Assembly: GCA_963695645.1 (NCBI GenBank)
Contig: CAVOHC010000004.1
Span: forward strand, 150,948-214,947
Length of the DNA stretch: 64,000 nt
Direction of reading: 5' to 3'
DNA from: an uncultured Actinomycetota bacterium
GTDB taxonomy: Bacteria > Actinomycetota > Actinomycetes > Streptosporangiales > Streptosporangiaceae
Shown here: piece after piece, positions 18,610 through 37,009 of the stretch
Position numbering within the stretch: position 1 is the stretch's first letter
Layout of the letters: every line of letters begins with the position of its first letter
Notes under the pieces: generated by a model
Seen by the model: only the letters and a program-made list of their open reading frames with translations
Told to the model about the DNA's origin: nothing
Databases searched by the model: none
Made by a program: the position numbers and the translations under genes

Positions 18610-18628
18610 CCCTAATCTGACAGCGATT

Positions 18629-18928
18629 GAGCAGAGCCGGATTGACCGGAGGCGTATTGAGCAGAGCCGTATTGAGCAGAGCCGTATTGAGCAGAGCCGT
18701 ATTGAGCAGAGCCGTATTGAGCAGAGCCGTATTGAGCAGAGCCGTATTGAGCAGAGCCGTATTGAGCAGAGCCGTATTGAGCAGAGCCGTATTGAGCGGA
18801 GCCGTATTGAGCAGAGCCGTATTGACCGGAGCCGTATTGAGCAGAACCGTATTGACCGGAGCCGTGCTGAGCAGAACCGTATTGACCGGAGCCGTGCTGA
18901 GCAGAACCGTATTGAGCAGAGCCGCCGG
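18629..18928. repeat. 15-bp tandem repeat (gagcagagccgtatt), about 20 copies
   Basis: Nine perfect copies span 18659-18793, flanked by degenerate copies (gaccggagccgtatt, gagcagaaccgtatt, gaccggagccgtgct). The unit has 8/15 G+C. The array begins 20 nt upstream (in gene orientation) of the ATG at 18609. Confidence 0.95.
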
Positions 18929-19516
18929 GCCAGATCGCTGCGAGCGGTGCGGCGGAAGAAATGACGGACAACTGAGAACTCCCGTTGCTGCATGCCGCAT
19001 CCCCCTCGATGCCGGGACCAAGCGCAGATCCCCGGTATCCACAACGAGTAATCATTACGTTGCGGATCGTATCCACATCTGAGGGGCGACATCCTGAGCT
19101 GCGGCTCGTGTCGGCGTCGGCGATGCGTTAGTGCGGCGGCTCAGGTCGGACCGGCACCTGCAGCAGGAATCGTGGATGCCGCGAGCGAGCCGCACTTCGT
19201 GAGCTGGTGCTGCAAAGTGGCGGGGATCGCTCGCGCCCACGATCAGGCAACTGGCTGGCCTGATATTCGGCTGGCTAGCGGTGGCGGTGACCGGCGCCGT
19301 CCTGCTCACAGCTGGGGCAGCGTACCAAGCGCGACTGCGCGACTTGGGCAAGCTGCGAGCCAGCGGGCGGTGCTGAGGAATGCTCGCTCCGACACTCAGA
19401 GTACGGGTGGACGTACGGTCGGTGAGCGGAGATACTTACGCCGGCGGTTGGAGGGCCAGCCGCCGGGCAGCCCGAGCACCCTGCTTGACCTTTTGGCCAC
19501 CCTCCCGGACCCGAGG

Positions 19517-22839: not shown

Positions 22840-24675
22840 TCAGCGGCCGCCGGGTGCCGCCCAGCGGCGGATCATCGCGATGCGTGCCCGGATCTGGTCC
22901 CCGGTGGCCTGCGGCAGCGGTGGTCCCCCGCAGGCCCGCCGCAGGTCCGCATGGATCGCCCCGTGCGGCTGGCCGGTCCGGTGATGCCACGCCGCGATGA
23001 GCTGGTTGAGTTCCTTGCGTGCGGTGGCCAGCGTCTCGCGGGTGGTGGCGGACGCTGGTACCGCGCCGGTGCCGGCTGCCACGCCCGCGCCAGTGTCGGC
23101 CGCCCCAGCCGCGCCGGTGCCGGCCGCCCCGGCCGCGGCAGCGGGTCTTCCCGGGGCCCAGCCGGGACGCCCGGCGCGCGTGTTCGCGAACTGGGCGGCC
23201 TGCCGTTTGCGCAGCAGCAGCGCGACTTGCTCCGGCTCCAGCAGTCCTGGCAGGCCGAGGAACTCTTCCTCCTCGGCCGACGCGCCGAACTCGGCGCCGT
23301 CGTACAGCACCCGGTCGAAATGGGCCGATGCCTCCAGTGCCTTGAATGGAAGCTCGTCAAGATCATCGGGTGTGTTCCGCTGGCGCCGCGCCTCAGCGAG
23401 CTCACGCTCCTCAGCTGCAGCATCGTCGCGGCGGCTGAGCACATGATCGCGTTCGGCCTCCAACTCCGCGGCGTAGCCGAGCAGTGCCGGGATCGATGGC
23501 AGGAAGACCGAGGCAGTCTCACCGCGCCGCCGTGCCCGGACGAACCGGCCCACCGCCTGGGCAAAGAACAGCGCGGTGCCCACGCTCGTCGCGTAAACGC
23601 CCACGGCGAGCCGCGGGATGTCCACGCCCTCGGACACCATGCGGACCGCCACCATCCACCGGTCCCCGGACATCGCGAAACCGGCGATCTTGCGGCTGGC
23701 CGATGGATCGTCGGAGAGTACGACCACCGGCCGGACTCCGGTAATGCGGCGCAGCAGCGTGGCGTAGGCGCGCGCGTCCGCGTGATCGCCGGCGATCACC
23801 AGGCCTGCCGCGTCCGGCATGTCCCTGCGCACCTCGGTGAGCCGCCGGTCAGCGGCTTCGAGCACCCGTACGATCCACGCCCCTTCCGGGTCCAGCGCGG
23901 TCCGCCAGGCCTGCGCGAGCTGATCAGGTGTCATCGGGGCGCCCAGCGTGCCGGTGACCTCGTCGCCGGCACGCGCCCGCCAGCGCATCTCGCCGGAGTA
24001 GGCGAGGAAGATCACTGGCCGGACTACGCCGTCCTCAAGAGCCGGGCCGTACCCGTAGACGTAGTCGGATGAGCTACGCCTGCTGCCGTCCAGGCCCTCG
24101 GCGTAGGTGACGAATGGGATCGGGTTGGCATCGCTGCGGAACGGAGTGCCGGTCAGCCCGAGTCTCCGCTTGGCAGGCTCGAAGGCCTCCCGGACCGCCT
24201 CGCCCCAGGACAGCGCGTCGCCTGCGTGGTGGATCTCGTCGAAGACAACGAGCGTGCGCCGGTTCAGCGTGCGCTGCCTGTGCAGTGCAGGGTGGGCCGC
24301 CACCTGCGCGTAGGTCACAGCGACTCCGGTGAAGTCAGCCGAGGCACGTCCTTGCGCGTTGCGATAGGACGAGTCAAGCGGGATTCTCAGGGCGTGCGCT
24401 GCCTGAGACCACTGGTGCTTCAGATGCTCAGTCGGCGTGACCACGGTGACCGCGGCGATTTCGCGGCGGGCAAGCAGCTCGGCGGCGATCGTCAGGGCGT
24501 ATGCAGTCTTCCCCGCCCCTGGCGTCGCGACCAGCAGGAAGTCACGCCGTGGCTGACGAAAGTACGCGTGATACGCATCCCGTTGCCAGTCGCGCAGCGG
24601 CGGAAGCAAGTCGGGCCTGACGGGTGCGCCGGGGAGGTTTGGCTCATCATCGGGGGCGAACGCGGGGGTAGTCAC
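22840..24675 (-). CDS. Superfamily-2 helicase (ResIII/DEAD-like ATPase plus helicase C)
   Basis: LRDWQRDAYHAY...LLVATPGAGKT (motif I), LVVFDEIHHAG (motif II), GLTGTPFRSD and VRMVSEGVDIPRL are present. GTG start at 24675. Confidence 0.8.
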   Translation of the reverse strand: MTTPAFAPDDEPNLPGAPVRPDLLPPLRDWQRDAYHAYFRQPRRDFLLVATPGAGKTAYALTIAAELLARREIAAVTVVTPTEHLKHQWSQAAHALRIPLDSSYRNAQGRASADFTGVAVTYAQVAAHPALHRQRTLNRRTLVVFDEIHHAGDALSWGEAVREAFEPAKRRLGLTGTPFRSDANPIPFVTYAEGLDGSRRSSSDYVYGYGPALEDGVVRPVIFLAYSGEMRWRARAGDEVTGTLGAPMTPDQLAQAWRTALDPEGAWIVRVLEAADRRLTEVRRDMPDAAGLVIAGDHADARAYATLLRRITGVRPVVVLSDDPSASRKIAGFAMSGDRWMVAVRMVSEGVDIPRLAVGVYATSVGTALFFAQAVGRFVRARRRGETASVFLPSIPALLGYAAELEAERDHVLSRRDDAAAEERELAEARRQRNTPDDLDELPFKALEASAHFDRVLYDGAEFGASAEEEEFLGLPGLLEPEQVALLLRKRQAAQFANTRAGRPGWAPGRPAAAAGAAGTGAAGAADTGAGVAAGTGAVPASATTRETLATARKELNQLIAAWHHRTGQPHGAIHADLRRACGGPPLPQATGDQIRARIAMIRRWAAPGGR

Positions 24676-24829: not shown

Positions 24830-27337
24830 TCATATGTCGGCTGCCGGATCCGTGCTCCTGGTGTAGCTGCGCCGGAACTGGTTGTCAGTGACGGGCCAGC
24901 GCTCTCCGCGGCGCCCTTCCACGACCCAGTCCCCGCGCCGAGCGATCGCCCGCCCCTCCATCGTCCGGAGGACGAGAAGGTCGCTGGCCTGCCATGCGCG
25001 GAAGGTGCCCGTGCGGCGCCAGACTTCGCCGCCGAGCGGCTCGTGACTTTGGCGGAACTCCCGGTCGCGGACCGTGCGCTCATCGCCGGAGTCATCGACG
25101 ACTCGCCAGTCTCCGACATCGCCATGCAGTTCGTCACCGGACAGGCGGGTCCACGGCCGCCGGGCATGCAGCCGTCTCGCCTGGACCGTACCGACGCGGC
25201 GAAAGTCAGCCGCATCGGCTGGCCCGCCTGGCGGCACGATGGGCACGAAGCCGACGTCCTCTAGCTGTGCGAGCTGCGACCGCAGGTAATTGACGCTTCT
25301 CGTGCGCTCGTCAGCTGGAAGATCAGCCCAGGGCACCGCTCTGCTGTTCACGAGCGCATTCCCCATCTTTCCAGCGCTCGACCGGCCAACGCCGCTGCCT
25401 GCGGACCAGCCGGCCGCCAGCCGCCGCTGGTACCAGCGGGTGTGCTCCACGCTGGCGACCTGTTCCACGTCGCGATCGGTCAGCTCGATGAAGCTACCGG
25501 GCGGCACTGCACGGGCCGGGACCCATTCACGCCCGCGGGCTACCACCGCCGTCATCACCGAGCGGACCTGAAGGATGTTGTCCTGGCGGATGAACTCATC
25601 CAGGTCAGCCCACGGGCGTCCGGTGAAGGTCCTCGGCTCACCAGGCACAGCGGGGTGCCTCATCCGGTAACACTCGTGCCAGTGCCGTGCCACCCTTGTC
25701 CACGTGTCCTCGGGCTCCTCGCCGTTTACCATGAAGGTCCGCTGAAAAGGCTGCAACCGGTCGAAGATCGCGCCGTTCGTGGCCGCCCCGTCGGACGTGA
25801 GCATGTACAAGGCAATACCCGGGTGCAGTCGTGCCACCCGCCCTGCCTCGTGCATGCTGGCGTCTGTGCAGGCGTCCGCGACGACAACAGCCGCCTGGGC
25901 TGCCTCGGCCGGGGGCATGGTATCCAGCGTGGCGAGAAGGTGCTCCCGCCACGGACTTGGCTCGGCGTGCACCTGCGGCGCCGCTGCGGCGACGGAATGC
26001 GGGGACGTCGCCTGGTACTCACGCCGCAGGTCTTCCGCCCGCCGGTCCAGGAGCACCACGCGCTGCACCGGATGCGGGGCCAGGGCCTGCCGGTCGGTCT
26101 CATCCAGGCAGGCGGCATCCGGGTGCGCGGCGCGGCCGATGGACGCGGCTTGGGAAAGCTCCCGCCACTCCCAGGCGCGACGGGCAAGCTCCAGGAGGAT
26201 GGCAAGCGCCAACGTACTGTCGCCGCACAAAAGCAGGTGCCGGGCCCCGGCGGAGAAGATCTGATTAACCAGAGCGCACGCGGTCGACTCCAGCGGGCTG
26301 AGCGCGTCCTCAAGCGACCAGCCGGAGTTGCCGCTGTGCCGGCCGCGCCAGTGATCAGCATGCCTGGGGTCATCGATGCGAGCGACCAGGTGCGGCTGCC
26401 GCTCAGGGTCGGGCGGATACCGGTGCAGTACGCCGTTGGCTGCCGTCAGGATTGCGTCGTTCTCCGCAGCGTCTTGGCGCAGCGCGTATAGCTGGCGCAA
26501 GGCGCATCCGCGGCGGCCGGCCAGCACCGGGAGCAGGACTCTGGGGGAGGCCGGGTCACCGATCATGACCCGTGCGCCGGTGGCGCGGGCCTCGTCAAGC
26601 AGGGGGTGGCCGCTGTCCGGCTCGATGACCACGATGCTGCTCCGGCGGCGAGTCTGCGCTAGGCGCTGCAGCAGGGGCACCGTTAATGTATCCAATCCGG
26701 TGAGGACGGTCGCGTCCGCCACCATCCGGGCCCGCAGGCGTCCCAGCGGCTCCCGCCACAGCACCGTCGCCACCGTCAGCGCTCCCACCAGTGTCGCCGC
26801 CAGGCTGATGGCGCCCCCGAACTGCAAGGCCAGCGGTGGCGCTCCCTGGCACCCGCCATACGGGTACGGAGGCGGATTTCCGACATACAGGTCGAGCATC
26901 CAGCCGGCTACCGCGCCTTCAGTCTGCCCACCCCGGCACGGGGTCAGCGCTGAGCAGGTGAGCGCGCCTCCGATCACGACCATCACCGCGACCGTGGTCA
27001 GCCCTACCGCCGCATGCTGCTGGAGTCGGCGCGGCCACCAGTAACACAGCAGCGCCACCAGCCACGCCCCGGCCAGTGCCAGCGGCGCCTGGACGCTTCC
27101 CGGCCGCAGCCAGGCCCGCCACCAGGCCTGCGTCAGATACAGCCATCGGCTGTCTGCAGCGGAGACCCAGGCTCCCCAGGCGAGGTAGCCGGTAATAGCA
27201 GCACCGAGGACCGCCGGCGGCACCCACGCGGCCCGCCGAGTAAAGCGGAGCCTGGCGAGGCGAGTCCTTATCACGGCCTCCCCATCCACCGGCCCGTGAT
27301 ACCAATCAGTAACGTGCTTTCTAGCGGAAGCAGCCAA
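24830..27337 (-). CDS. Multi-pass membrane protein with a Rossmann-like central region, two RyR-like repeats and a small C-terminal beta domain
   Basis: 835 aa with N-terminal hydrophobic helices. IVVIEPDSGHPLLDEARATGARVMIGDP is TrkA-N-like. The RyR-like repeats are WTRVARHWHECYRMRHP...RPWADLDEFIRQDNI and VASVEHTRWYQRRLAAGWS...VPWADLPADERTRSVNYLRSQL. The C-terminal ARRGDWVVEGRRGERWPVTDNQFRRSY is PGDYG-like. The track start is TTG, so the start is uncertain. Confidence 0.5.
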   Translation of the reverse strand: MAASARKHVTDWYHGPVDGEAVIRTRLARLRFTRRAAWVPPAVLGAAITGYLAWGAWVSAADSRWLYLTQAWWRAWLRPGSVQAPLALAGAWLVALLCYWWPRRLQQHAAVGLTTVAVMVVIGGALTCSALTPCRGGQTEGAVAGWMLDLYVGNPPPYPYGGCQGAPPLALQFGGAISLAATLVGALTVATVLWREPLGRLRARMVADATVLTGLDTLTVPLLQRLAQTRRRSSIVVIEPDSGHPLLDEARATGARVMIGDPASPRVLLPVLAGRRGCALRQLYALRQDAAENDAILTAANGVLHRYPPDPERQPHLVARIDDPRHADHWRGRHSGNSGWSLEDALSPLESTACALVNQIFSAGARHLLLCGDSTLALAILLELARRAWEWRELSQAASIGRAAHPDAACLDETDRQALAPHPVQRVVLLDRRAEDLRREYQATSPHSVAAAAPQVHAEPSPWREHLLATLDTMPPAEAAQAAVVVADACTDASMHEAGRVARLHPGIALYMLTSDGAATNGAIFDRLQPFQRTFMVNGEEPEDTWTRVARHWHECYRMRHPAVPGEPRTFTGRPWADLDEFIRQDNILQVRSVMTAVVARGREWVPARAVPPGSFIELTDRDVEQVASVEHTRWYQRRLAAGWSAGSGVGRSSAGKMGNALVNSRAVPWADLPADERTRSVNYLRSQLAQLEDVGFVPIVPPGGPADAADFRRVGTVQARRLHARRPWTRLSGDELHGDVGDWRVVDDSGDERTVRDREFRQSHEPLGGEVWRRTGTFRAWQASDLLVLRTMEGRAIARRGDWVVEGRRGERWPVTDNQFRRSYTRSTDPAADI

Positions 27338-27622
27338 GCCCGCCGTTACGTCGACGGTGACACAGAACGGCGTAACCGCCTAGTCCTGTATCGGGGCCAT
27401 CGATACCCCCGGCATCGCGCGGGGGCACCGATTAGTTCGGGTCGTGGCCCCGGCGGGCAGGCGTCGGCGGCACTGCCCTGAAAGTCTCGGCGACAGATTG
27501 ATGCGGACGTGCCGCGCATGCCGTACCCTAATCCGGTGGCACCCGGGCCATGGGAGAGTACTGACCCATGAATCGGGCGGCGAGTCCAGGCGATGCCGGG
27601 TCACGTTAGCTCGTAGCAGGCT

Positions 27623-27669
27623 CTGGTTACTCGGTGTGATAACCTACGCGCACCTGGTTACTCACTGTG
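27623..27669 (+). promoter_or_regulatory. Pair of 16-nt direct repeats upstream of fxsA (candidate regulator-binding site)
   Basis: ctggttactcggtgtg (27623-27638) and ctggttactcactgtg (27654-27669) share 14/16 positions and are spaced 31 bp start to start. They are followed by an AT-rich patch (gttgcaaaaactgtctatacaga, ~27688-27710). Confidence 0.3.
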
Positions 27670-27760
27670 TTCGGGGAACCGGACAAAGTTGCAAAAACTG
27701 TCTATACAGACGCACCACATGGGTGGTGCCGGAGCCTTGGGCGAGATTGGCTGGCACGTT

Positions 27761-27940
27761 ATGCATATCACCGAGGACATCAGCAGGACGGTTCCGTCTA
27801 AACTGGCAGATCTCCGGGATGTGCCGCTGGCGGAGATGCCGACCCTGAGCGCGGTGACCCTTGATGAGGCGTTTGACGGTATTATGCCGGGCTCGAAGGC
27901 AGTTCCGGTGCCGGTCATGGCATTCGCCTCCGCCATCTAA
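27761..27940 (+). CDS. fxsA: FxSxx-COOH RiPP precursor peptide
   Basis: MHITEDISRTVPSKLADLRDVPLAEMPTLSAVTLDEAFDGIMPGSKAVPVPVMAFASAI-stop ends in F-A-S-A-I and lies 15 nt upstream of the radical SAM gene. G/C third-position bias becomes clear only from 27761. In-frame alternative starts are ATG 27719 and TTG 27689. Confidence 0.8.
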   Translation: MHITEDISRTVPSKLADLRDVPLAEMPTLSAVTLDEAFDGIMPGSKAVPVPVMAFASAI

Positions 27941-27955
27941 GCCTGCGGGCCTGAC

Positions 27956-30484
27956 ATGAGCAGGCCGTCCGTTCCGCTCAGCCACTCCGTCGCGCCTGGC
28001 CCGCTCAGCCAGTTCGTCCTCAAGGTACACAGTCGGTGCGATCTCGCCTGTGATCATTGCTACGTCTACGAGGCCGCCGACCAGAGCTGGCGTGGCCGCC
28101 CCATGGCCATTTCCGACGAGGTGATCTCGCGGACGGCGCAACGCATCGCTGAACATGCCGCTTCACACGCCCTCGGCACCGTGCAGGTGGTGCTGCACGG
28201 TGGGGAGCCCCTGCTCGCCGGCCCGGCCCGGCTGCGGCGGGTGGTCACGGAGCTTCATGCGGCGCTCCGCGCCGTATGCCGCCTTGACCTGAGGATCCAC
28301 ACCAACGGTGTGCTGCTCAACGAGGATTTCTGCGAACTGTTCGCCGAGCATGCTGTCAAGGTCGGTATCTCCATCGATGGTGACCGGGTCGCCAATGACC
28401 GGCACCGCAGATACGCAGACGGGCGCAGCAGTTACGACCAGGCGATCCGTGCTATCGGGTTGCTGCGCGCCGACCGTTTCCGGGATCTGTATGCCGGACT
28501 GCTATGCACAATCGACATCGCAAACGACCCGCTGGCGGTCTATCAGTCTTTAATGGACTTGCGCCCGCCCCGGGTCGACTTTCTCCTGCCGCACGCGACA
28601 TGGGATCATCCGCCGTTGCGCGGGCTTGCCGCAGACAGCGAGTACGCTGACTGGCTGATTGCGATTTTCGACCGCTGGCTTGCGGAGGGACGCCCGGCCC
28701 CGATCCGCACCTTCGATTCAATCATCTCCACAATGCGGGGCGGTGAAAGCTTTACTGAGGCACTAGGCCTCGGGCCAACCGGGCTTATCGTCATCGAAAC
28801 TGACGGCAGCTACGAACAAGTCGACTCGCTGAAAGCGGCGTTTGACGGCGCGCCGGATACCGGGATGAACGTCTTCGACCATGCCCTCGATGTTGTTTCT
28901 CGCCACCCTGGTATTCTTGCTCGTCAGCAAGGAATTTCCGGCCTATGCCAGACGTGCCAGAAATGCCCAGTAGTTACCAGCTGTGGTGGTGGCCTTTACA
29001 CCCACAGGCACCGGGCAGGTAACGGCTTCGCCAATCCATCGGTGTACTGCTCCGACCTGCTGAAGCTTATTTCCCATATCAGCAGCCGGCTGTGTGAGGT
29101 GCCCCCGGACGCACCGGGAATCCCGACTCACTCGATAGGCGGCCCGGAATTCCGGGCCCTGGCAGCGGGCGTCGGCGACGGCGCGGCGGTGGCACAGCTC
29201 GCCGGGGCCCAGCGGAGCCTGCTTCGCGGCTTGCTCGGTGCGGTGTACCAGGAAGGAATTACCGGGGCCGCCGTTTCAGCGGCGGTCAAGACGGACCTGC
29301 GGCGCGCCTGGTCGTTGTTGACCACACTCGACCGTGAACGACCTAAAGCCCTGCAGACGGCGCTCGGGCATCCCTATATTCGCGCCTGGGCTATGCGCTG
29401 CCTCAAGCAGTTGCGGCCCGCCGCTGCCTGGCACGGCGACCAGGATCATGCAAGAAGGGTGCCAGGGCTGACCGCCGACCTGAGGCATCTCGGCGCCATC
29501 GCTGCCGCTGCTGCTATTCACGCTGGGACTAGCGGTACCGTCAGGATCCCTGTGCTGCATGGCGCCGTGCACCTGCCCACGCTGGGCCGCCTGGCAATCG
29601 GCCCGGAGCAAGCAATCGGCCCGGAGCAAGCAATCGGCCCGGAGCAAGCAATCGGCCCGGAGCAGGCTGCCCGGTCGCCCGCAGAAGTGCTCGAAACGGC
29701 GACCGTCGACGTTGCCGGCGGGGTGGTTGCTGTACGGCTCGGTGCCAGCCGCTGGACACTGGCCAGCAGCGACCTGCTCAGCGGCGCGGCGAGTCAGGGC
29801 GCCACGTCCGAGAGCGGCAGGCCCGCCAGCTGGGAGCCCGTACGCAGGCTCAGCGCACTTGGCATCTGCGTCGCGATGGAGGACACCGATCCCTACCGCG
29901 ACTGTCACCAATGGCGGCCGGCGGCACGGCTGACCGAAGCTGAGTTCGCCCAGTGGCAGCGGCAATTCCGGTATGCCTGGCGGGAAATCGAGCGTGCGCA
30001 TGGTGCCTACGCCCCGGCGCTTGCCGCAGGCCTAACGACGCTGATGCCCCTGGCCGCTGCCCAAGACGGTGGCGATCTCAGCGCCGCCGCCAGGGACGCG
30101 TTCGGCGCCGTCGCCATGGCACTACCTGCCGATCCGGTAACCCTCGCCTTGCTGCTCATCCACGAGTTCCAGCATGTGAAACTCGGTGCGGTGCTCGATC
30201 TCTACGAGCTTTTTGATCGCGCTGATGACCGTCTCTTCCACGCCCCGTGGCGCGAGGGCAAGCACCAGATCGAAGACCTCCTGCAAGGCACCTACGCGCA
30301 CCTGGCCGTCACTGACTTTTGGCGCGCACGCCAGCACATCGCGGCCGACCAGGCAGCGGGACGGCGATTCGTGCATTGGCGCGCTCGGACCCGCGATGCG
30401 ATCGAGATCCTGGCGACTTCTGGCTCGTTGACACCGCTTGGGGCGTGGTTCGTCGATGAAATGCGCCATTCGGCAGGGCCGTAG
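27956..30484 (+). CDS. fxsB: FxsB-type radical SAM/SPASM peptide maturase fused to a C-terminal HExxH domain
   Basis: The radical SAM motif is KVHSRCDLACDHCYVY (Cx3Cx2C at 28037-28060). The SPASM-like cysteines are CQTCQKCPVVTSCGGG...YCSDL. The C-terminal domain carries LLIHEFQHVKLG (HEFQH at 30161-30175). Confidence 0.9.
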   Translation: MSRPSVPLSHSVAPGPLSQFVLKVHSRCDLACDHCYVYEAADQSWRGRPMAISDEVISRTAQRIAEHAASHALGTVQVVLHGGEPLLAGPARLRRVVTELHAALRAVCRLDLRIHTNGVLLNEDFCELFAEHAVKVGISIDGDRVANDRHRRYADGRSSYDQAIRAIGLLRADRFRDLYAGLLCTIDIANDPLAVYQSLMDLRPPRVDFLLPHATWDHPPLRGLAADSEYADWLIAIFDRWLAEGRPAPIRTFDSIISTMRGGESFTEALGLGPTGLIVIETDGSYEQVDSLKAAFDGAPDTGMNVFDHALDVVSRHPGILARQQGISGLCQTCQKCPVVTSCGGGLYTHRHRAGNGFANPSVYCSDLLKLISHISSRLCEVPPDAPGIPTHSIGGPEFRALAAGVGDGAAVAQLAGAQRSLLRGLLGAVYQEGITGAAVSAAVKTDLRRAWSLLTTLDRERPKALQTALGHPYIRAWAMRCLKQLRPAAAWHGDQDHARRVPGLTADLRHLGAIAAAAAIHAGTSGTVRIPVLHGAVHLPTLGRLAIGPEQAIGPEQAIGPEQAIGPEQAARSPAEVLETATVDVAGGVVAVRLGASRWTLASSDLLSGAASQGATSESGRPASWEPVRRLSALGICVAMEDTDPYRDCHQWRPAARLTEAEFAQWQRQFRYAWREIERAHGAYAPALAAGLTTLMPLAAAQDGGDLSAAARDAFGAVAMALPADPVTLALLLIHEFQHVKLGAVLDLYELFDRADDRLFHAPWREGKHQIEDLLQGTYAHLAVTDFWRARQHIAADQAAGRRFVHWRARTRDAIEILATSGSLTPLGAWFVDEMRHSAGP
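29594..29665 (+). repeat. In-frame 18-bp tandem repeat, 4 copies, inside fxsB (encodes AIGPEQ x4)
   Basis: gcaatcggcccggagcaa occurs three times perfectly, followed by gcaatcggcccggagcag. The protein reads LAIGPEQAIGPEQAIGPEQAIGPEQAARSP. It lies between the SPASM region and the HExxH domain. Confidence 0.95.
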
Positions 30485-30767
30485 CAAGGGGTCAGCCCAG
30501 CATCAGCCACGACAGCTGACAGAGCGCCGCGATACCTGGCAGCCGCCACAGCTGGAGTCCCCGAAGCCGAGGTCTCGCTCTTCCCGGCGGTGCCTGATTG
30601 AGAGGTCACCGCGGCATGCGCCGCCACGGGATGGGACGCCGCCCCTGGTCACATACTAAGATCTCCTATATCATCATTTCGCCACGCCGCATTGGGCGAT
30701 AATTGGCCGCTGGCCGCACTGTAGTGGCTGCTGGGACTGGCGTGGCGTGACGGGGGGGAAGGCGCCA

Positions 30768-32057
30768 ATGGTTTCGGGGCGCGACGACAGGCCGTACTTC
30801 TTCCTAAGCTACGCACGGACGCCGAAACGAGATCCATCCGACCGTGATGATCCAGATCGCTGGGTCTACAAGCTATACAAAGACCTGTGCGGCGCCATCT
30901 TACAAATGACTGACGCCCGGCCCGAAGAAGCTGGATTCATGGACCGGGAGAACAAGCTCGGTACCGAATGGTCACCAGAACTGACGGCGGCACTCGCGAG
31001 ATGCCGGGTCTTCGTCCCGCTGTACTCCCGGCGGTATTTCGAAAGTGACAATTGCGGCAGAGAATGGTTTGCTTTCGCGCGCCGCGAAATCACTCACCGG
31101 GCTCGGGGCCGCCAGCTAGTTGACGCCATTGTGCCGGCGCTCTGGACGAGAATGGATCGGCAGAAGCTCCCCCATGTCGCGCAGTCCGTCCAGTTCGAAC
31201 ATGGCTTCCTCGGTGAACGCTACTGCACTGAGGGTTTCTATGGGATCATGAAGCTGCAGAATTATCGCGCCGATTATCAGCGCGCAGTGCACAGGCTCGC
31301 CGAGCGAATCATCGCGATTGGCGACGAGAGCGTCGCATTTACTGATGAAAACGTCGTTCCCGCGATGACGCAGGCGGATTTCGAGTCGCTGCCGAGCGCC
31401 TTTGGCCCGGCTAGCGCGCGCCGGACCGCAGATGGCCAGCTTCAGATCGCGGTGCTCGCGCATGACACCTCGACGCTGCCGCCGGGGAGGGCCCGCGACT
31501 ACTACGGCGCTACGCCGAGCACCTGGAGCCCGTACCGGCCGGATTACACCCAGCCGGTGGCCGACTACGCGCTGGAGCTGGCCAAGAAGTGCCTTGACTG
31601 CAAACCCCTGGTTGGAGCTTTTGACGACGCCATGGCGAATTGGGTCAGCAATGGGCACCCGGTGCCGCCGAGTTTGTGCCTCGTCGATGCCTGGGTGAGC
31701 GTATCGGCCGCGCATCAGGAACAGCTGAGCCGGCTGGAGCAGGTCGAGGAGTCCTGGGTCAGCGTGCTGGTTCCGTGGAACAGCCAGGATTCGGGGATGC
31801 ACGAGGCCAAAGATGATCTTCGCGAGAAACTCCATGAGCACTTGGGCCGTAAGCTTGCCGGCGTCCCGAGACGATGCCAGATGGCCGCGAACGGAATCCC
31901 CACTCTCTACGATTTCGGGCAGCTCCTGCCCGAGATGACAATGATCATGCTGAAGAGATTCCGCAAAGAAGCTACTGCCCATCCGCCCGCAGGTCCCTTC
32001 ATTGAGCGCCCGCGGCTGAGGAGATCCGAACTCCAGGATTCCGGAGATGCACGATGA
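30768..32057 (+). CDS. fxsC: TIR-like protein FxsC
   Basis: The ATG at 30768 (M8 of ORF 30747..32057) follows ggggggaagg. MVSGRDDRPYFFLSYARTPKRD...WVYKLYKDL...CRVFVPLYSRRYFESDNCGREWFAF shows the TIR-like beta-A FxxSY and SxxC..E motifs. The C-terminal ~300 aa are not assignable by eye. Confidence 0.85.
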   Translation: MVSGRDDRPYFFLSYARTPKRDPSDRDDPDRWVYKLYKDLCGAILQMTDARPEEAGFMDRENKLGTEWSPELTAALARCRVFVPLYSRRYFESDNCGREWFAFARREITHRARGRQLVDAIVPALWTRMDRQKLPHVAQSVQFEHGFLGERYCTEGFYGIMKLQNYRADYQRAVHRLAERIIAIGDESVAFTDENVVPAMTQADFESLPSAFGPASARRTADGQLQIAVLAHDTSTLPPGRARDYYGATPSTWSPYRPDYTQPVADYALELAKKCLDCKPLVGAFDDAMANWVSNGHPVPPSLCLVDAWVSVSAAHQEQLSRLEQVEESWVSVLVPWNSQDSGMHEAKDDLREKLHEHLGRKLAGVPRRCQMAANGIPTLYDFGQLLPEMTMIMLKRFRKEATAHPPAGPFIERPRLRRSELQDSGDAR

Positions 32058-35000
32058 GCGACCCGAGCCGGGGCCAGATCATTACGTTCTACTCTTACAA
32101 GGGCGGTACCGGCCGTACGATGGCACTCGCCAATGTCGCGTGGATTCTCGCGAGCAACGGCAACCGGGTCCTTGCCGTTGACTGGGATTTGGAATCACCC
32201 GGACTGCACAAGTTCTTTCATCCTTTCCTAGACGAATCAACTGTGAGCGCCACGCCTGGCGTGATAGAAATAATCAATGATTATGCGTCCGCCGCTGTTG
32301 ATCCGGGAGCGCGCGACGATGATTGGCATCTGGAATACGCGCGCGTCGATCGTGATGCGGTATCTCTGGAATGGGCCTTCCCCCATGGCGGCAAACTGGA
32401 CTTTCTCTCGGCCGGCCGCCAGAACCGTGACTATTCTGCCGCCGTCTGCTCCCTTGACTGGGATAACTTCTACGACCGGCTCGGCGGCGGGCGTTTCTTT
32501 CGCGCGATGCGAGATGACATGAAGCAGAAATACGACTACGTACTGATAGACAGCCGTACCGGGCTGAGCGACGTGGCGGACATCTGCACGATCGAGCTCC
32601 CGGACGTCTTAGCGATCTGCTTCACGCTCAGTGATCAGAGCATCGAGGGCGCAGCCAACGTCGCCCGCCAGATCAGCGGACGGTACCGGGATCGAAATAT
32701 CCGGGTACTGCCCGTGCCGATGCGCATCGAGGACGGCGAGAAAGAGAAGCTTGACATCGGGCGTGCCCTGGCCCGGATGAAGTTCGAGGGCTTCCCGACA
32801 GGCATGACCCAGGAGAACTCGGCGCTGTACTGGGCGTCGGTCGAAGTGCCCTACAAGCCCTTCTATGCCTTCGAGGAGACCCTGGCGACCTTCGGTGACG
32901 ACCCAGGTTCGCCAGCGTCGCTGCTGTCCTCATTCGAGCGGATTACGAACTCGCTCACCGAGGGACGGGTGACGGCGATGCAGCCGATCGCCGAGAACCT
33001 GCGGCTGCAGTACAAGGAGGCTTTTGCCCGGCGACAGCCTGCAGCTTCCACGCAGGTCTACCTGAGCTACGTGCCGGAGGACCGCATGTGGGCCGACTGG
33101 ATCGAGGCGGTGCTGACGCGCGCCGGCTTCCGCGTGCTGCCGCGTAGCACGGTGACGACGGCGGCCGCGGGCAGTGCCGAGGTCCGGGGCAGCATCCAGG
33201 CGGAGCGCGAACTTCAGGCTGCTCCCCGGGCCATCGCCGTGCTTTCTTCCGCTTACCTGCATTCGCCCGACGCCCGATCCATCTGGAAGACCTTGTCGTC
33301 GGCCGATGCTGCCGACACGCATCGTCAGCTGGTGCCGGTCAGGGTGAGCGAAGTAAGGATCATCGAGCCGTTCACCGAGCATCCCGCCGTGGACCTGGCG
33401 CGCATGGATGCGGCCCAGGCGACCGCGAAGCTGCTGTGGGCTCTGGACCGGCCTGTTCCTCCGCTCGGCAGCACGGGAACCCAAGCCGAGGAGCCCCGGT
33501 TCCCCGGCACGATCCCGCCGATATGGAACGTCCCGGCCAGGAATGCCGACTTCACCGGGCGCGGCGCGACGCTTGAACTGCTGCGCGACAAACTCGCCGG
33601 GGGCGGCCTGGCGGTCGTCGTCGCGCAGGCGCTGTATGGGCTGGGCGGCGTCGGCAAGACCCAGCTCGCGCTGGAGTACGCGCACCGCTTCATGGCCGAC
33701 TATGACCTGGTCTGGTGGGTGCCGTCCGAGCGGGCCGAGGAGACCAGCGGGGCGCTCGCCGAGCTGGCCCGCAAGATGGGTCTGAAGGTCGGCGACAATG
33801 TGGCCGAGGCAGCGGAGGCTGCCCTGGAGGAGCTGCGCCGCGATTCCACGCCGCACTGGCTGCTGATCTTCGACAATGCCGACGACCCCAAGCAGCTCGA
33901 GCCGTACCTGCCCACCGGCTCGGGCCATGTCCTCATCACCTCGAGAAATCAGGCGTGGTCGCACTCCGCTGAGCCTCTCGAGGTGGATGTCTTCACGATG
34001 GACGAGAGTGTGGCGCACCTGCTCCGGCACGTGCCTGAACTGGACATGGCCGACGCGAAGCGAGTCGCCGACGCCCTGGGGCACCTGCCGCTGGCCGTCG
34101 AGCAGGCCAGCGCGTGGCTAGAGCAGACCGGGATGCCCGCGCGGGCCTACGTCGAGCAGCTGGCGACGCAGTCCACCCGGATCCTGGCGCTGAACCAGCC
34201 GCCGGACTACCCGATGCCGGTAGTGGCCACCTGGAACCTGTCCTTCGACCAGCTCAAAGGGCGATCGCCGGCCGCGGTGCGGCTGCTGCAGCTGTGCGCA
34301 TTCTTCTCGCCAGGGCCGATCTCCATGGACTTGCTCTACAGCGACGAGATGAACGAGTCCTTGCTGCCCTTTGACGAGACGCTGAGCGAGAAGCTGATGC
34401 TCGGCCGGGTGATCAGGGATATCAGCCGCTTCGCTTTGATCAAGGTGGACCAGGGCAGCAACTCGCTGCAGATCCACCGGCTGGTCCAGGCCGTGATCCG
34501 CTCCCAGATGAGCGACGAGGCGCAGGCCGACGCGCGGCATGAGGTACATAAGATCCTGGTCGGCGCCCGGCCCCGCCAGGGGGAGACAGACGACCCGGCG
34601 AACTGGTCCACCTATGACATCATCTGGCCGCATCTCGGTCCTTCGCAGGCTGACGAGTGCGACGATCCGCGCACCCGGCAGCTGCTCATCGACTGGGTGC
34701 GCTACCAGTGGAAGCACGGCGAGTTCGAATCTGGCCTGAGCCTGGCGAGGCGCCTGGAGAACCTGTGGATCCACCAGCTCGGGCCTGACCATCAGCAGAC
34801 GCTGCACCTGCAATTCCAGATCGCCAACGTGCTGCGTTCCCAGGGCCGCTTCAAGGACGCCCGCGACCTGGACACCTATGTCCTGGAGCGGCAGCGAGCC
34901 GTACTCGGGGTAGACCATCCGCACGCGCTGATCACCGCGAACGGGCTGGGGGCTGATCTGCGTGCGCTCGGCGACTTCCAGGACGCACTGGCCTCGGACC

Positions 35001-35992
35001 GGGAGACCTATGAGAGCTTTAAGGAGCAGTTCGGCGCGGATTACCCGCGGACATTGATCGCTGCCCATAACCTGGCGAGCTCGCTGCGGCTGGTCGGTGA
35101 CTGCTTCGCGGCGCGCCGCCTCGACGAGGAGACGCTGGACTGTCAACGGCAGGTGCTGGGCAGCGACCATCCCTATACCCTCTTGTCGGCGGCCAGCCTG
35201 GCTCACGATATGCGCGCGGCAGGCGCCTTCCGGGACTCCGTCGACCTGCTGCGCTACACATGGGAGAAATACCGGGCGGTGCTTGGCGACGACATGCTCG
35301 ACACCTTGCGGACCGCCACCAGCCTGGCCGTGTCGCTGCGCAAGGCCGGGGAGCAGTCCGAGGCGATGAATCTCGCGCAGGACACCTACGAGCGTTACAA
35401 GCGCCGCTACGGCAGCGACGCGCCAGATGCCCAATCGTGCGCGCTCAACCTGGCCTGCGACTACGCGGCGGTCGATGACATGCCCAGGGCACTGGAGCTG
35501 GTGACGGGCGTCAAGGCCGCGCTCCAGGCCAGCCTGGGCGACGAGCATCCGAACACGTTGGTCGCCGCCAACAACCTGGCGTGCTACCTGCGGGCCATTG
35601 GCCGGCTCCCGGAGGCGCTTGCGCTGACGGATGACACGCTAGGCAGGACGCAGCCACGGCTCGGAAGCCGCCACCCGCTAACCCTGTGCTGCGCAGTCAA
35701 CCTGGCTAACTGCCGCGGGGACTGCGGGGACCTCGAAGCGGCCGAAGCGCTCGAGCGCCAGGCGATTGCGCTACTGCGGGAGGTGCTCGGCCGGGACCAC
35801 CCGGACACCCTGGTCGGCGAGGCCAATCTCGCTGTCACCCTGCGCCAGGCAGGGCGGGAGAAGGATGCCGAGGAACTCAGGGCACGGATCTTCGCTGACT
35901 TCAGCCGCGTGCTGGGCGCAGGTCACCCGGACGTCGCGCAACTACACAAATGGCAGCGGATCAACCGCGATCTGGAACCGCAGCAAATCTAA
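32054..35992 (+). CDS. fxsT: FxSxx-COOH-system STAND protein: ParA/MinD-like ATPase, TIR, NB-ARC and TPR
   Basis: Its ATGA overlaps the fxsC stop. Domain motifs: (1) IITFYSYKGGTGRTMALANVAWILA...VLAVDWDLESPGL...YVLIDSRTGLSD, a deviant Walker A at 32099-32119; (2) QVYLSYVPEDRMWADWIEAVLTRAGFRV, TIR-like from ~33053; (3) GLGGVGKTQLALEYAH (33638-33661), WLLIFDNADD and HVLITSRN, NB-ARC; (4) many DHPxTLxxxxNLAxxLRxxG units up to the C-terminus, TPR. Confidence 0.88.
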   Translation: MSDPSRGQIITFYSYKGGTGRTMALANVAWILASNGNRVLAVDWDLESPGLHKFFHPFLDESTVSATPGVIEIINDYASAAVDPGARDDDWHLEYARVDRDAVSLEWAFPHGGKLDFLSAGRQNRDYSAAVCSLDWDNFYDRLGGGRFFRAMRDDMKQKYDYVLIDSRTGLSDVADICTIELPDVLAICFTLSDQSIEGAANVARQISGRYRDRNIRVLPVPMRIEDGEKEKLDIGRALARMKFEGFPTGMTQENSALYWASVEVPYKPFYAFEETLATFGDDPGSPASLLSSFERITNSLTEGRVTAMQPIAENLRLQYKEAFARRQPAASTQVYLSYVPEDRMWADWIEAVLTRAGFRVLPRSTVTTAAAGSAEVRGSIQAERELQAAPRAIAVLSSAYLHSPDARSIWKTLSSADAADTHRQLVPVRVSEVRIIEPFTEHPAVDLARMDAAQATAKLLWALDRPVPPLGSTGTQAEEPRFPGTIPPIWNVPARNADFTGRGATLELLRDKLAGGGLAVVVAQALYGLGGVGKTQLALEYAHRFMADYDLVWWVPSERAEETSGALAELARKMGLKVGDNVAEAAEAALEELRRDSTPHWLLIFDNADDPKQLEPYLPTGSGHVLITSRNQAWSHSAEPLEVDVFTMDESVAHLLRHVPELDMADAKRVADALGHLPLAVEQASAWLEQTGMPARAYVEQLATQSTRILALNQPPDYPMPVVATWNLSFDQLKGRSPAAVRLLQLCAFFSPGPISMDLLYSDEMNESLLPFDETLSEKLMLGRVIRDISRFALIKVDQGSNSLQIHRLVQAVIRSQMSDEAQADARHEVHKILVGARPRQGETDDPANWSTYDIIWPHLGPSQADECDDPRTRQLLIDWVRYQWKHGEFESGLSLARRLENLWIHQLGPDHQQTLHLQFQIANVLRSQGRFKDARDLDTYVLERQRAVLGVDHPHALITANGLGADLRALGDFQDALASDRETYESFKEQFGADYPRTLIAAHNLASSLRLVGDCFAARRLDEETLDCQRQVLGSDHPYTLLSAASLAHDMRAAGAFRDSVDLLRYTWEKYRAVLGDDMLDTLRTATSLAVSLRKAGEQSEAMNLAQDTYERYKRRYGSDAPDAQSCALNLACDYAAVDDMPRALELVTGVKAALQASLGDEHPNTLVAANNLACYLRAIGRLPEALALTDDTLGRTQPRLGSRHPLTLCCAVNLANCRGDCGDLEAAEALERQAIALLREVLGRDHPDTLVGEANLAVTLRQAGREKDAEELRARIFADFSRVLGAGHPDVAQLHKWQRINRDLEPQQI

Positions 35993-35995
35993 GAT

Positions 35996-37009
35996 CTATC
36001 CGCCGACTGGGCTCGTGCTCCTGCCGGGGCGCGATCGCCGGCCTGCCGACAACCACCGGAGGATGTCGGGAAGCACGTCTAGCGCGCCGAAATGGGCAGC
36101 CCCCGCCTGAACCACCACGGCCGCGCTGGGGATCTTGTCGGCGAGCCACCTCGCGTGGCTGACTGGGGAGAACACGTCGCTCGCGCCGTGCCAGAGCAGG
36201 ACGGGCACCGTGACAGAGGCCGGGTCAAATCCCCATGGCGAGCAAAACGCCAGCACGTCATCGATCCAGCCATAGTCCGACGTCCGCAACGCCTCGGCAT
36301 AGGTCTCTATCAGCATCGACCGGATGCCCCGGTCCGCCACCACCCGCCGGTCCGGGTCGGGCAGCTCGGCCTGGAGCCTGGCGATCAGGCTAGCGGGGTT
36401 GGCGCGGACGGCGCTGGCGACCGCCTTGGTATGGGCGACTATGTCCTCGTAGCCGTTCGCCGCCGCCGTGTACTCGATGACATTCGACCGCGCCATACCG
36501 TCGAACCAGTCAAGCCCGTCAGCGCCGTGCGGGGCGAGTCCTACCAGGACTGCCGCCTTCGTCGTCCGCTCGGGTAGCAACGCGGCACAGGCGAGAGCAT
36601 GGGGGCCGCCGCCCGATCGGCCGACGACCGAGAACTTCTCCAGCCCATAGGCATCGGCGATAGTCAGTACATCGGCTGCTACGTCCACCACCCTCCGACC
36701 GGCTAAACGGTCCGATTCCCCATAACCGGGGCGGTCGAAGGAGATCAGCCGGACGCCAAGCCGGTGCAGAACAGCGGATCGGGGACGGGGCCCTAACCGG
36801 CTTCCTGGAGTTCCATGCAGGAGGAACACGGGTCTGCCGTCGCAGTCGCCGTACGCCTGGGTGGAAAGTCGCCTGCCGTCGGCCGTTCGCACCGTGTACT
36901 TCAAGATCGTCCCTTGCCCCATTCGCGCCGCTTGGGTCATCCGGGGGGCGGCGTAGCTTCCAGCATGCCGCCGCTGGCCCGGCAACGGAAGAGACGCAGG
37001 CTCGGCCAT
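35996..37009 (-). CDS. Alpha/beta-fold hydrolase (proline iminopeptidase-like)
   Basis: PVFLLHGTPGSRLG, ISFDRPGYGESD and the nucleophile elbow VVGRSGGGPHAL are present. The start could be 37009, 36940 or 36922. It is convergent with fxsT with a 3-nt gap. Confidence 0.8.
   Translation of the reverse strand: MAEPASLPLPGQRRHAGSYAAPRMTQAARMGQGTILKYTVRTADGRRLSTQAYGDCDGRPVFLLHGTPGSRLGPRPRSAVLHRLGVRLISFDRPGYGESDRLAGRRVVDVAADVLTIADAYGLEKFSVVGRSGGGPHALACAALLPERTTKAAVLVGLAPHGADGLDWFDGMARSNVIEYTAAANGYEDIVAHTKAVASAVRANPASLIARLQAELPDPDRRVVADRGIRSMLIETYAEALRTSDYGWIDDVLAFCSPWGFDPASVTVPVLLWHGASDVFSPVSHARWLADKIPSAAVVVQAGAAHFGALDVLPDILRWLSAGRRSRPGRSTSPVGG

Follow-up and report, generated by a model that had tools for sequence, protein, structure and literature searches.

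A standalone Fxs cassette from an uncultured Streptosporangiaceae actinomycete as a candidate peptide-controlled TIR/STAND switch

The closest described relatives of the locus examined here are the FxSxx systems of Kaur, Burroughs, Iyer and Aravind (eLife 2020; PMC7159879). In that paper, an AP-ATPase that carries a TIR domain at its N-terminus, and tetratricopeptide repeats (TPR), lies downstream of the FxSxx modules, a standalone form carries an extra 'inactive MinD/ParA-like domain', and the FxSxx peptides tied to such systems, which are enriched in multicellular actinomycetes, are proposed to serve as toxin or signal in a conflict system. Here we analyse an fxsA-fxsB-fxsC-fxsT cassette in a 64,000-nucleotide stretch of DNA (the window) from an uncultured soil actinomycete of the Streptosporangiaceae (assembly GCA_963695645.1, contig CAVOHC010000004.1, positions 150,948 to 214,947), in which the precursor of a RiPP (a peptide that is synthesised ribosomally and modified after translation), FxsA, and a radical S-adenosylmethionine (SAM) maturase, FxsB, are encoded together with a TIR protein, FxsC, and a STAND protein, FxsT. 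We are highly confident that this is a bona fide standalone Fxs (FxSxx-COOH) system. Its function is more tentatively assigned: we interpret the cassette as a conflict-type TIR/STAND switch (for abortive infection or programmed cell death) that works inside the cell under the control of the peptide, and not as an antibiotic cluster, a chain of steps that, taken whole, has in our estimation a little less than an even chance of being correct.

The locus shares with the standalone systems of Kaur et al. (PMC7159879) its architecture, taxon range and interpretation as a conflict system. It differs from their account in that the HExxH domain is there regarded as a peptidase of the zincin type by which the peptide is released, and the ParA-like domain as inactive, and in the text searched no SLATT or other membrane protein is tied to the FxSxx systems. 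A sequence-only reading of this DNA had suggested a peptide-linked conflict or signalling system; the linkage it noticed holds, but both the coupling of peptide to TIR and STAND proteins and the conflict idea were already in print in 2020 (PMC7159879), and the finding, one of at least 567 species-level copies, is therefore less novel than it had seemed. It had also held that no experiment explains the link between a cyclophane peptide and TIR/STAND proteins; none was found in the literature searched, where the only paper to use FxSxx in this sense is computational.

Other known systems are related more loosely. TIR-NLR and STAND proteins (plant TIR-type NLR, or TNL, resistosomes, bacterial Avs and TIR-STAND proteins) share the layout of TIR, NB-ARC and repeat sensor, and the predicted FxsC fold is closest to RUN1, L6, RPP1 and ROQ1; in Fxs, however, the STAND-fused TIR of FxsT lacks the catalytic Glu, the enzymatic-type TIR is a separate protein, a ParA-like domain with a Lys-to-Arg change is added and linkage to a RiPP is obligate. 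In Thoeris, the ThsB TIR makes glyco-cyclic ADP-ribose (gcADPR), which the SLOG-domain effector ThsA reads. Fxs likewise sets a TIR with a catalytic-type Glu beside a candidate nucleotide-responsive effector, which in Streptomyces Fxs loci is a SLATT protein together with a small protein with a faint DprA/SLOG-like match; it lacks ThsA or SIR2 and adds a STAND NTPase and a RiPP module. RRNPP and arbitrium systems also pair a short genetically encoded peptide with a TPR protein, but the output of Fxs is neither a helix-turn-helix protein nor a phosphatase, secretion and re-import machinery is lacking, and the peptide is predicted to be cross-linked by a radical SAM enzyme. Modified peptides or proteins in phage defence have precedents in the HXS system (HxsA-D, with a radical SAM-matured His-Xaa-Ser repeat protein) and in the 'lanthiphage' lanthipeptides; chemistry and location differ (a periplasmic block to DNA entry in HXS, lanthionine in the latter), and neither has a TIR or STAND partner.

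The four genes of the cassette are co-directional:

27761..27940, + strand: fxsA, 59-amino-acid (aa) precursor; leader motif DLRDVPLAEM, core …PVMAFASAI-COOH (Phe55-x-Ser57-x-x)
27956..30484, + strand: fxsB, 842 aa, comprising a radical SAM/SPASM region, a variable linker and an α-ketoglutarate (αKG)-HExxH domain
30768..32057, + strand: fxsC, 429 aa from its ATG; the open reading frame (ORF) from GTG 30747 would give 436 aa, and homologues have 429 aa
32054..35992, + strand: fxsT, 1312 aa in four regions

ORF listing and letter-by-letter translation placed these genes where the sequence-only reading had put them and confirmed the lengths that it gave, its gap of exactly 15 nucleotides (nt) between fxsA and fxsB (27941-27955), the Cx3Cx2C and HEFQH motifs of FxsB and the ATGA at 32054-32057 in which the fxsC stop overlaps the fxsT start; fxsB and fxsC are separated by 283 nt (30485-30767). 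Family membership was assigned with NCBIfam/TIGRFAMs profile hidden Markov models, bit scores being judged against curated cutoffs, and with Pfam as a second library. FxsB (TIGR04269, 571 bits against a cutoff of 370), FxsC (NF040588 FxsC_Nterm, 212 against 130; TIGR04276 FxsC_Cterm, 126 against 55) and FxsT (NF040586 FxSxx_TPR, 1048 against 300) lie far above the cutoffs, and only FxsA falls below (TIGR04268, 18.8 against 28; E 0.0015), so that its membership rests on motif and position. The naming of the four genes as Fxs A, B, C and T was thus upheld, and by every feature that could be checked, namely the set of four proteins, the gene order and the domain composition, the cassette matches the Fxs family. 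No vWA, MoxR or VMAP gene was found among the Pfam-scanned ORFs of the window near the cassette, which makes it the 'standalone' form of Kaur et al. (PMC7159879).

The arrangement is not peculiar to this genome. An FxsC alignment scanned against one genome per GTDB species gave at least 567 encoding stretches, and the best 80 loci were analysed with 10-kb flanks. They span metagenome-assembled genomes (MAGs) of Streptosporangiaceae, Sphaerisporangium, Streptomyces, Actinacidiphila and Kitasatospora, the nearest relatives being Streptosporangiaceae-type soil MAGs; the window itself matches contig_63111 (271.6 kb) of the ENA assembly ERZ25039537. In every one of the 80 that is uncut by a contig end the order is A-B-C-T, with fxsB 5' of fxsC and a full-length fxsT (ParA-like, TIR, NB-ARC and TPR) 3' of it; the same gene order in 80 independent loci is far beyond chance. 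The loci were picked through FxsC, so what they establish is that A, B and T are always present where FxsC is standalone; the converse is taken from Kaur et al. (PMC7159879).

The sequence-only reading had made its proposal hinge on fxsA-like peptides being conserved beside fxsB, fxsC and fxsT, a test that it withstands: an FxS-type ORF lies immediately 5' of fxsB in 78 of 78 related loci, 75 of them with a strict FxSxx-stop, and fxsC and fxsT lie downstream. Three loci that had seemed to be without FxsA (L030, L037 and L043) proved to encode a precursor ending AAFQSFSSK-stop at about 6,600-6,700 in each locus; four residues follow the Ser there, and the rule of two residues and a stop is thus not absolute. 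In the window the translated C-terminus reads …VPVPVMAFASAI-stop, and although a start at ATG 27719 would give a 73-aa form, the gene calls in relatives have 59 aa. Across orders the leader is variable and the last seven residues are near-fixed, [AS][AST]F[NQSA]S[AS][IL], with low entropy at positions -1, -2 and -4; the stretch preceding the core is Pro-rich (…VPVAAF…).

What is known of the enzyme family suggests how this core would be modified. FxsB is composed as follows:

28004-29083, + strand: radical SAM/SPASM cyclophane synthase region (aa 17-376), with C28-x3-C32-x2-C35 at 28037-28060
29594..29664, + strand: tandem repeat in the linker, a perfect in-frame 18-nt unit in 3.9 copies (100% matches, score 142), encoding (AIGPEQ)x4
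29972-30463, + strand: αKG-HExxH β-hydroxylase-type domain (aa 673-836), with an intact HEFQH at aa 736-740 (30161-30175)

We take the family IPR026335 to be that of FxsB. In the triceptide literature FxsB is listed among the radical SAM-SPASM enzymes reported to form three-residue cyclophanes, and the IPR026335 member MscB joins C4(Phe) to Cβ(Ser), in line with the sequence-only reading's statement that FxsB-type enzymes are three-residue cyclophane maturases. CDLACDHC (aa 28-35) is invariant in relatives and, with the F-A-S motif and the enzyme family both present, a Phe55-Ser57 cyclophane on FxsA is predicted by analogy with MscB. The same literature describes ChlBH, a fused radical SAM-HExxH enzyme, as a β-hydroxylase dependent on αKG and non-haem iron, whose substrate is a pre-formed cyclophane and which hydroxylates Asp and His; related HExxH enzymes can also cleave the backbone oxidatively. 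The likeness of FxsB to MscB and ChlBH thus lies in the enzyme family, in the Ω1-X2-X3 motif (F-A-S) and in the fused HExxH domain. It differs in that the FxsA core here (AFASAI) contains neither Asp nor His, and the TIR/STAND context is not addressed in the triceptide reviews consulted.

The HExxH domain (TIGR04267, 145 bits against a cutoff of 40) belongs by its sequence to the αKG-dependent β-hydroxylases and not to the zincin proteases. HExxH-dependent cleavage of the leader, which the sequence-only reading had envisaged, is for this reason unlikely as hydrolysis, though cleavage of some kind may occur. Many Fxs family members have an 'inactivated' FxsBH form, but FxsB of the window, which scores below the cutoff of that model (135 bits against 225), keeps HEFQH, as do about 22 related loci. 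Elsewhere the motif has been lost repeatedly while the domain itself was kept, both in the nearest relatives of the window (EEFQQ in L001, SEFQS in L003, QEFQR in L005, and also GEFQH) and in Streptomyces (RGFRR, TGRRR), a pattern that in the alignments amounts to many independent losses. Shorter FxsB calls of 724 aa in close relatives had raised the idea of N-terminal truncation; a one-frame alignment over aa 1-840 ruled this out and identifies the 724-aa calls as a start-codon artefact. The (AIGPEQ)x4 repeat, in the poorly conserved linker between SPASM and HExxH domains, looks like a recent in-frame expansion.

The partners of the peptide module are two TIR proteins that are not alike. The features of FxsC are:

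31062-31064, + strand: codon of Glu99 in the TIR-like N-terminal domain, motif SDNCGREW
aa ~224-401, + strand: C-terminal domain, flavodoxin-like α/β fold

Pfam finds TIR_2 in FxsC (32 bits), and the AlphaFold2 model (mean predicted local distance difference test score, pLDDT, 87; predicted template-modelling score 0.86) has as its best Foldseek matches the TIR domains of the plant NLR proteins RUN1, RPV1, L6, RPP1 and ROQ1, together with AbTir and SPARTA TIRs. In sequence and profile alignments with PDB entries Glu99 falls on the WCLMEL-motif Glu of flax L6/L7, which we take to be the catalytic Glu, and within S..CG[KR]EW this Glu is kept in all variants listed from the 80 loci. The FxsC TIR is therefore likely to be an enzyme of the NAD+-cleaving type, with Glu99 as the likely catalytic residue. 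The C-terminal domain folds with high confidence alone (pLDDT 93), and among PDB structures it has no significant neighbour (best Foldseek E 0.06, all of them generic flavodoxin-like or Rossmannoid folds).

The regions of FxsT are:

32075-32674, + strand: ParA/MinD-like domain of the KGGVGR-variant type (aa 8-207), Walker A KGGTGRT at 32099-32119
33056-33433, + strand: TIR domain (aa 335-460), with Ile410 (33281-33283) in the catalytic Glu column
33530-35989, + strand: NB-ARC/STAND NTPase and TPR array (NF040586 region, aa 493-1312), Walker A and B intact

In Pfam terms FxsT has TIR_2 (56 bits), NB-ARC just below threshold (21.8 against 23.5) and strong TPR_10 and TPR_12 matches. At the position of the catalytic Glu its TIR has Ile410, and all 18 aligned relatives have I, V, L, A, F or T, never Glu. 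The nearest PDB entries to its profile are Hydra TRR-2 and MyD88, whose TIR domains we take to be non-enzymatic adaptors; searches with the single TIR sequences gave marginal matches only, and the profile versions were slightly better, still weak. The sequence-only reading was thus right to call both domains TIR-like, both being TIR_2, and the new point to emerge from the alignments is that they are not equivalent, since FxsC keeps the catalytic-type Glu and FxsT is without it. For the FxsT TIR a scaffold role is predicted.

The NB-ARC motifs are conserved (Walker A GLGGVGKT, Walker B LLVFDNAD), and from these motifs the STAND NTPase looks active. A deviant Walker A had been noted for the N-terminal domain, which is indeed ParA/MinD-like; it departs, however, from the canonical xKGGxxK[ST], as KGGTGRT has the signature Lys and, invariantly, Arg in place of the P-loop Lys, and the domain belongs instead to the NF047398 KGGVGR-variant ATPases (146 bits against a cutoff of 90). 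At 62-70% identity between the window and Streptomyces it is the most conserved part of the whole cassette, which argues that it is not decaying, whereas the TPR part is less conserved (41-50%).

Two further observations connect FxsC with FxsT and separate it from the peptide. On a JGI metagenome contig (L084/P0236, L084:1220-7339) an FxsC-type TIR that keeps its Glu is fused directly to an FxSxx-type NB-ARC-TPR protein lacking both the ParA-like domain and the second TIR, and FxsA (…SAFNSSI-stop) and FxsB follow. Elsewhere the fusion partners of FxsC modules are SAV_2336 proteins of the vWA type and an EACC1-type caspase; long FxsC homologues had at first suggested FxsB-FxsC fusions, an idea ruled out when their partners proved to be vWA (SAV_2336), caspase or NB-ARC-TPR. 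On a mobilisable Streptomyces plasmid (L087; NZ_CP108204.1) the gene at 124148-128722 encodes a 1524-aa 'TIR-like protein FxsC'. It comes after genes for an AAA ATPase and hypothetical proteins and has a recombinase and a Tn3 transposase as neighbours; the annotation shows no FxsA or FxsB near it, and the trio of hypothetical protein, AAA ATPase and long FxsC is presumably of the VMAP/MoxR/vWA type. By these sequence comparisons FxsC is a portable effector module that also occurs outside the peptide context.

The boundaries that the sequence-only reading drew (27623-35992) proved too narrow, leaving out two conserved neighbours:

24830..27274, - strand: up835, candidate membrane partner, 814 aa as called in the source assembly, divergent from fxsA
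27275..27760, no strand: intergenic region between up835 and fxsA, divergent, with presumed promoters
35996..37009, - strand: α/β-hydrolase, S33/prolyl-aminopeptidase-like, convergent with fxsT, triad Ser132-Asp278-His306

The hydrolase (Pfam Abhydrolase_1 and Hydrolase_4; weak TIGR01249), whose stop codon was read directly 3 nt from that of fxsT, adjoins the cassette in about 74 of the 80 loci at 55-93% identity, a conservation that spans several actinomycete genera as well as MAG lineages. It lies after fxsT in convergent orientation or, in one Streptomyces subgroup, 5' of fxsA. Its catalytic triad is intact and conserved, and across 75 sequences the motifs HGxPGSR, GRSGG, WHG..D and AAHF reach a conservation of 95% or more. 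Conservation and linkage make it a likely fifth Fxs component, newly recognised here, and its resemblance to S33 prolyl aminopeptidases, together with the Pro-rich stretch before the FxsA core, makes it a reasonable candidate for the leader peptidase.

On the other side, up835, which has no family assignment, has about four N-terminal transmembrane (TM) helices followed by regions weakly like TrkA-N, RyR and PGDYG, and some of its homologues carry PF14083, PF02026 and PF02254 as precomputed matches. It lies beside the cassette in 20 of the 25 loci of the window's clade, the other five being cut by contig ends, and in L021 it has moved to the opposite side and is still adjacent. In Streptomyces and Sphaerisporangium the same divergent slot 5' of fxsA is held by a double-SLATT 2TM effector protein (SLATT_3 plus SLATT_1), which occurs in three arrangements in 49 of 55 Sphaerisporangium, Streptomyces and Actinacidiphila loci; SLATT domains are predicted nucleotide-signal-responsive pore formers. 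A membrane protein of one kind or the other adjoins 69 of the 80 cassettes, a near-constant neighbour newly noted here, and on the ground of this linkage up835 is a candidate member of the system. Adjoining up835 in the window is a gene for a 611-aa ResIII/DEAD helicase (22840-24675, - strand) with weak PADLOC PbeA matches and a weak likeness to Dnd-restriction enzymes; it is not conserved in the related loci.

A model that draws these elements together has five steps. According to it, the radical SAM/SPASM region of FxsB would first link Phe55 of FxsA with the Cβ of its Ser57, so that a three-residue cyclophane forms at the extreme C-terminus, a reaction known for the family and carried over to this locus by analogy. 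Second, the fused αKG-HExxH domain, whose HEFQH is intact here, probably oxidises the cyclised core, by β-hydroxylation or otherwise, and the serine α/β-hydrolase probably trims the leader. Third, the mature peptide would serve as a ligand, or as a guarded 'all is well' signal, for the TPR and NB-ARC parts of FxsT; it is well known that TPRs can clamp free C-termini. No transporter or exporter was found inside the cassette or conserved beside the related loci (a TauE gene near the cassette of the window is present in none of them), and the short core is near-invariant across orders, which together suggest that the peptide most likely stays inside the cell. Fourth, the NB-ARC of FxsT would oligomerise and its Glu-less, MyD88-like TIR would scaffold and order the Glu-bearing TIR of FxsC, the putative NAD+-cleaving or signal-making enzyme. 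Fifth, the linkage suggests that the product, or the loss of NAD+, may be read by the adjacent membrane protein (double-SLATT in Streptomyces; 4TM/TrkA-N/RyR-like here), leading to membrane failure or growth arrest.

Several lines of evidence argue for such a switch: the Fxs identity of the locus, the chemistry of the family, the obligate A-B-C-T linkage, the L084 protein as a Rosetta-stone fusion, the portability of FxsC, the asymmetry of the two TIR domains, the intact NTPase motifs, the lack of a transporter and the adjacent membrane protein. Radical SAM and RiPP precedents in anti-phage defence point the same way, as does the prediction of the same general kind by Kaur et al. (PMC7159879).

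Weighing against the switch are, in the first place, that steps two to five are inferred, and that the TPR array of FxsT could sense a phage or foreign protein in the manner of Avs rather than the peptide. The TIR alignments, mutually consistent as they are, are weak (E 0.01-0.15 against PDB; E 0.08 for the hhalign comparison of the FxsT and FxsC TIRs), and in the FxsT TIRs of Streptomyces the residue just before the canonical column is Asp or Glu. All Pfam matches of up835 are below cutoff (TrkA_N, E 4e-3; RyR, E 2.7e-3; PGDYG, E 2e-4), and four full-length loci (L026, L051, L052 and L054) have neither membrane protein. The Streptomyces cassette sits in a syntenic chromosomal neighbourhood, which resembles vertical inheritance more than a mobile defence island, and a scan of a viral contig collection found no FxsC relatives or decoys. 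In PADLOC-DB v2 FxsC has no match, and the window proteins match neither Thoeris nor any validated defence system; FxsT matches, through its ParA-like domain, only the untested candidate PDC-M28B, and FxsB shows only generic radical SAM similarity to viperins. The locus thus belongs to no validated defence family, though it may function in the manner of a Thoeris- or NLR-type TIR system. Finally, an AAC(3)-type aminoglycoside N-acetyltransferase gene (PF02522, 213 bits), absent from the window, lies between fxsB and fxsC in 35 of the 80 loci (L021, L026 and others among L030-L080), many of them Streptomyces-type, and this enzyme and the hydrolase would suit an ordinary biosynthetic cluster.

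Within the proposal of a peptide-controlled switch, a more specific possibility, which we take seriously while judging it unlikely, is that an NLR-like FxsT has the cyclophane peptide as its physiological ligand or as a 'health reporter' that it guards. FxsT would be off as long as the short-lived peptide is made; a failure of supply or a change in the peptide's state would let FxsT assemble, its dead TIR would template the FxsC TIR and a nucleotide signal would open the membrane effector. Synthesis of the peptide would depend on SAM, iron-sulfur clusters, αKG and O2, translation and a peptidase, so that its presence could report on all of these.

In bacteria, STAND-TPR proteins often act as sensors of foreign proteins, and the TPR array is among the less conserved parts of FxsT. 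Both observations suit the main alternative, which we find unlikely, given as the likely role by Kaur et al. (PMC7159879) and agreeing with the enrichment of such systems in multicellular actinomycetes reported there: the TPRs of FxsT would recognise a phage or foreign protein, the TIRs would fire, and the cyclophane peptide, as a toxin or as a warning or kin signal, would be set free or activated and so strengthen the response in the mycelium. No exporter or lysis gene is conserved with the cassette, however, a seven-residue core near-invariant across orders is unusual for an arms-race toxin, and fxsA and fxsB lie 5' of the switch genes in one co-directional block with no sign of separate inducible control in Rfam, promoter and terminator scans. 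A consensus scan of 27300-28000 found neither a sigma-70-type promoter nor a terminator; a riboswitch or other RNA element upstream of fxsA was also considered and rejected, and Rfam at E <= 1 returned only a sub-threshold chance match to a CRISPR direct repeat, inside fxsA.

The same peptide-gated TIR/STAND module might instead govern the differentiation or programmed death of hyphae, with the peptide as a reporter of metabolic or SAM/iron-sulfur status. The named organisms among the loci (Streptomyces, Sphaerisporangium, Actinacidiphila, Kitasatospora) are all filamentous actinomycetes, the cassette has a stable, syntenic place on the Streptomyces chromosome, and no copy was found on viral contigs, the only plasmid copies being the peptide-less vWA-fused form. 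We consider such a developmental role improbable all the same: FxsC modules are common to caspase/EACC1 and VMAP-type systems, the plasmid-borne one beside a recombinase and Tn3 transposase is in a setting typical of conflict systems, and no developmental regulator is linked.

Least probable, and very much so, is an ordinary RiPP cluster in which FxsT would be an AfsR-like STAND regulator and the tailoring would fall to FxsC, to the hydrolase and, in other loci, to the AAC(3) enzyme, for example by TIR-catalysed ADP-ribosylation or base exchange: linked hydrolase and acetyltransferase genes, the resemblance of the FxsT NB-ARC region to AfsR (NF053617, 60 bits, far under the cutoff of 1430) and the ADP-ribosylation of the triceptide minviopeptin by an NAD+-using enzyme of its own cluster speak for it, but it is disfavoured because NCBIfam and Pfam find no SARP or other DNA-binding domain in FxsT, FxsC occurs in conflict systems without FxsA and FxsB, and neither a transporter nor an immunity gene is linked, while the minviopeptin enzyme, MicD, has an ADP-ribosyltransferase (ART) fold and not a TIR fold, and SLATT effectors are adjacent.

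In composition the cassette stands slightly apart from its surroundings. The sequence-only reading had called it AT-richer than its flanks at fxsA, fxsC and the 5' third of fxsT, and G+C is indeed 0.59-0.62 in three stretches (27.5-28, 28.5-29 and 30.5-33 kb) where the window as a whole averages 0.69, with G+C at third codon positions of 0.72-0.75 for fxsA, fxsB, fxsC and the ParA part of fxsT against 0.79-0.87 in neighbouring genes; the AT-richness is genuine, though mild. Elsewhere in the window a 1072-aa ORF (15874-19092, - strand) combines a PQQ_2 match (BamB-like β-propeller) with ASH/HYDIN/DUF1573 Ig-like domains and probably encodes a surface protein unrelated to the cassette, and the remaining scanned ORFs are ordinary metabolic genes.

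The Fxs system was already catalogued and its chemistry partly solved, and the details added here allow sharp experiments. The analysis names Glu99 of FxsC as the likely catalytic residue, assigns a predicted scaffold role to the FxsT TIR and adds the hydrolase and the membrane protein as candidate components, and FxsB variants with a dead HExxH motif, the TIR-NB-ARC-TPR fusion and the peptide-less FxsC fusions are natural variants that can be used as controls. Three fields, RiPP chemistry, TIR/NAD+ signalling and NLR-like STAND switches, join in one compact operon. If the peptide proves to be a health reporter, it would be the first RiPP to act as an intracellular immune second signal, and the two TIR proteins would provide a bacterial example of the division of labour between adaptor and enzyme TIRs. 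More generally, if the peptide controls the STAND protein, RiPPs would have a role beyond those of antibiotics and quorum signals, as the internal ligand of an immune or death switch, in the very bacteria that supply most natural products.

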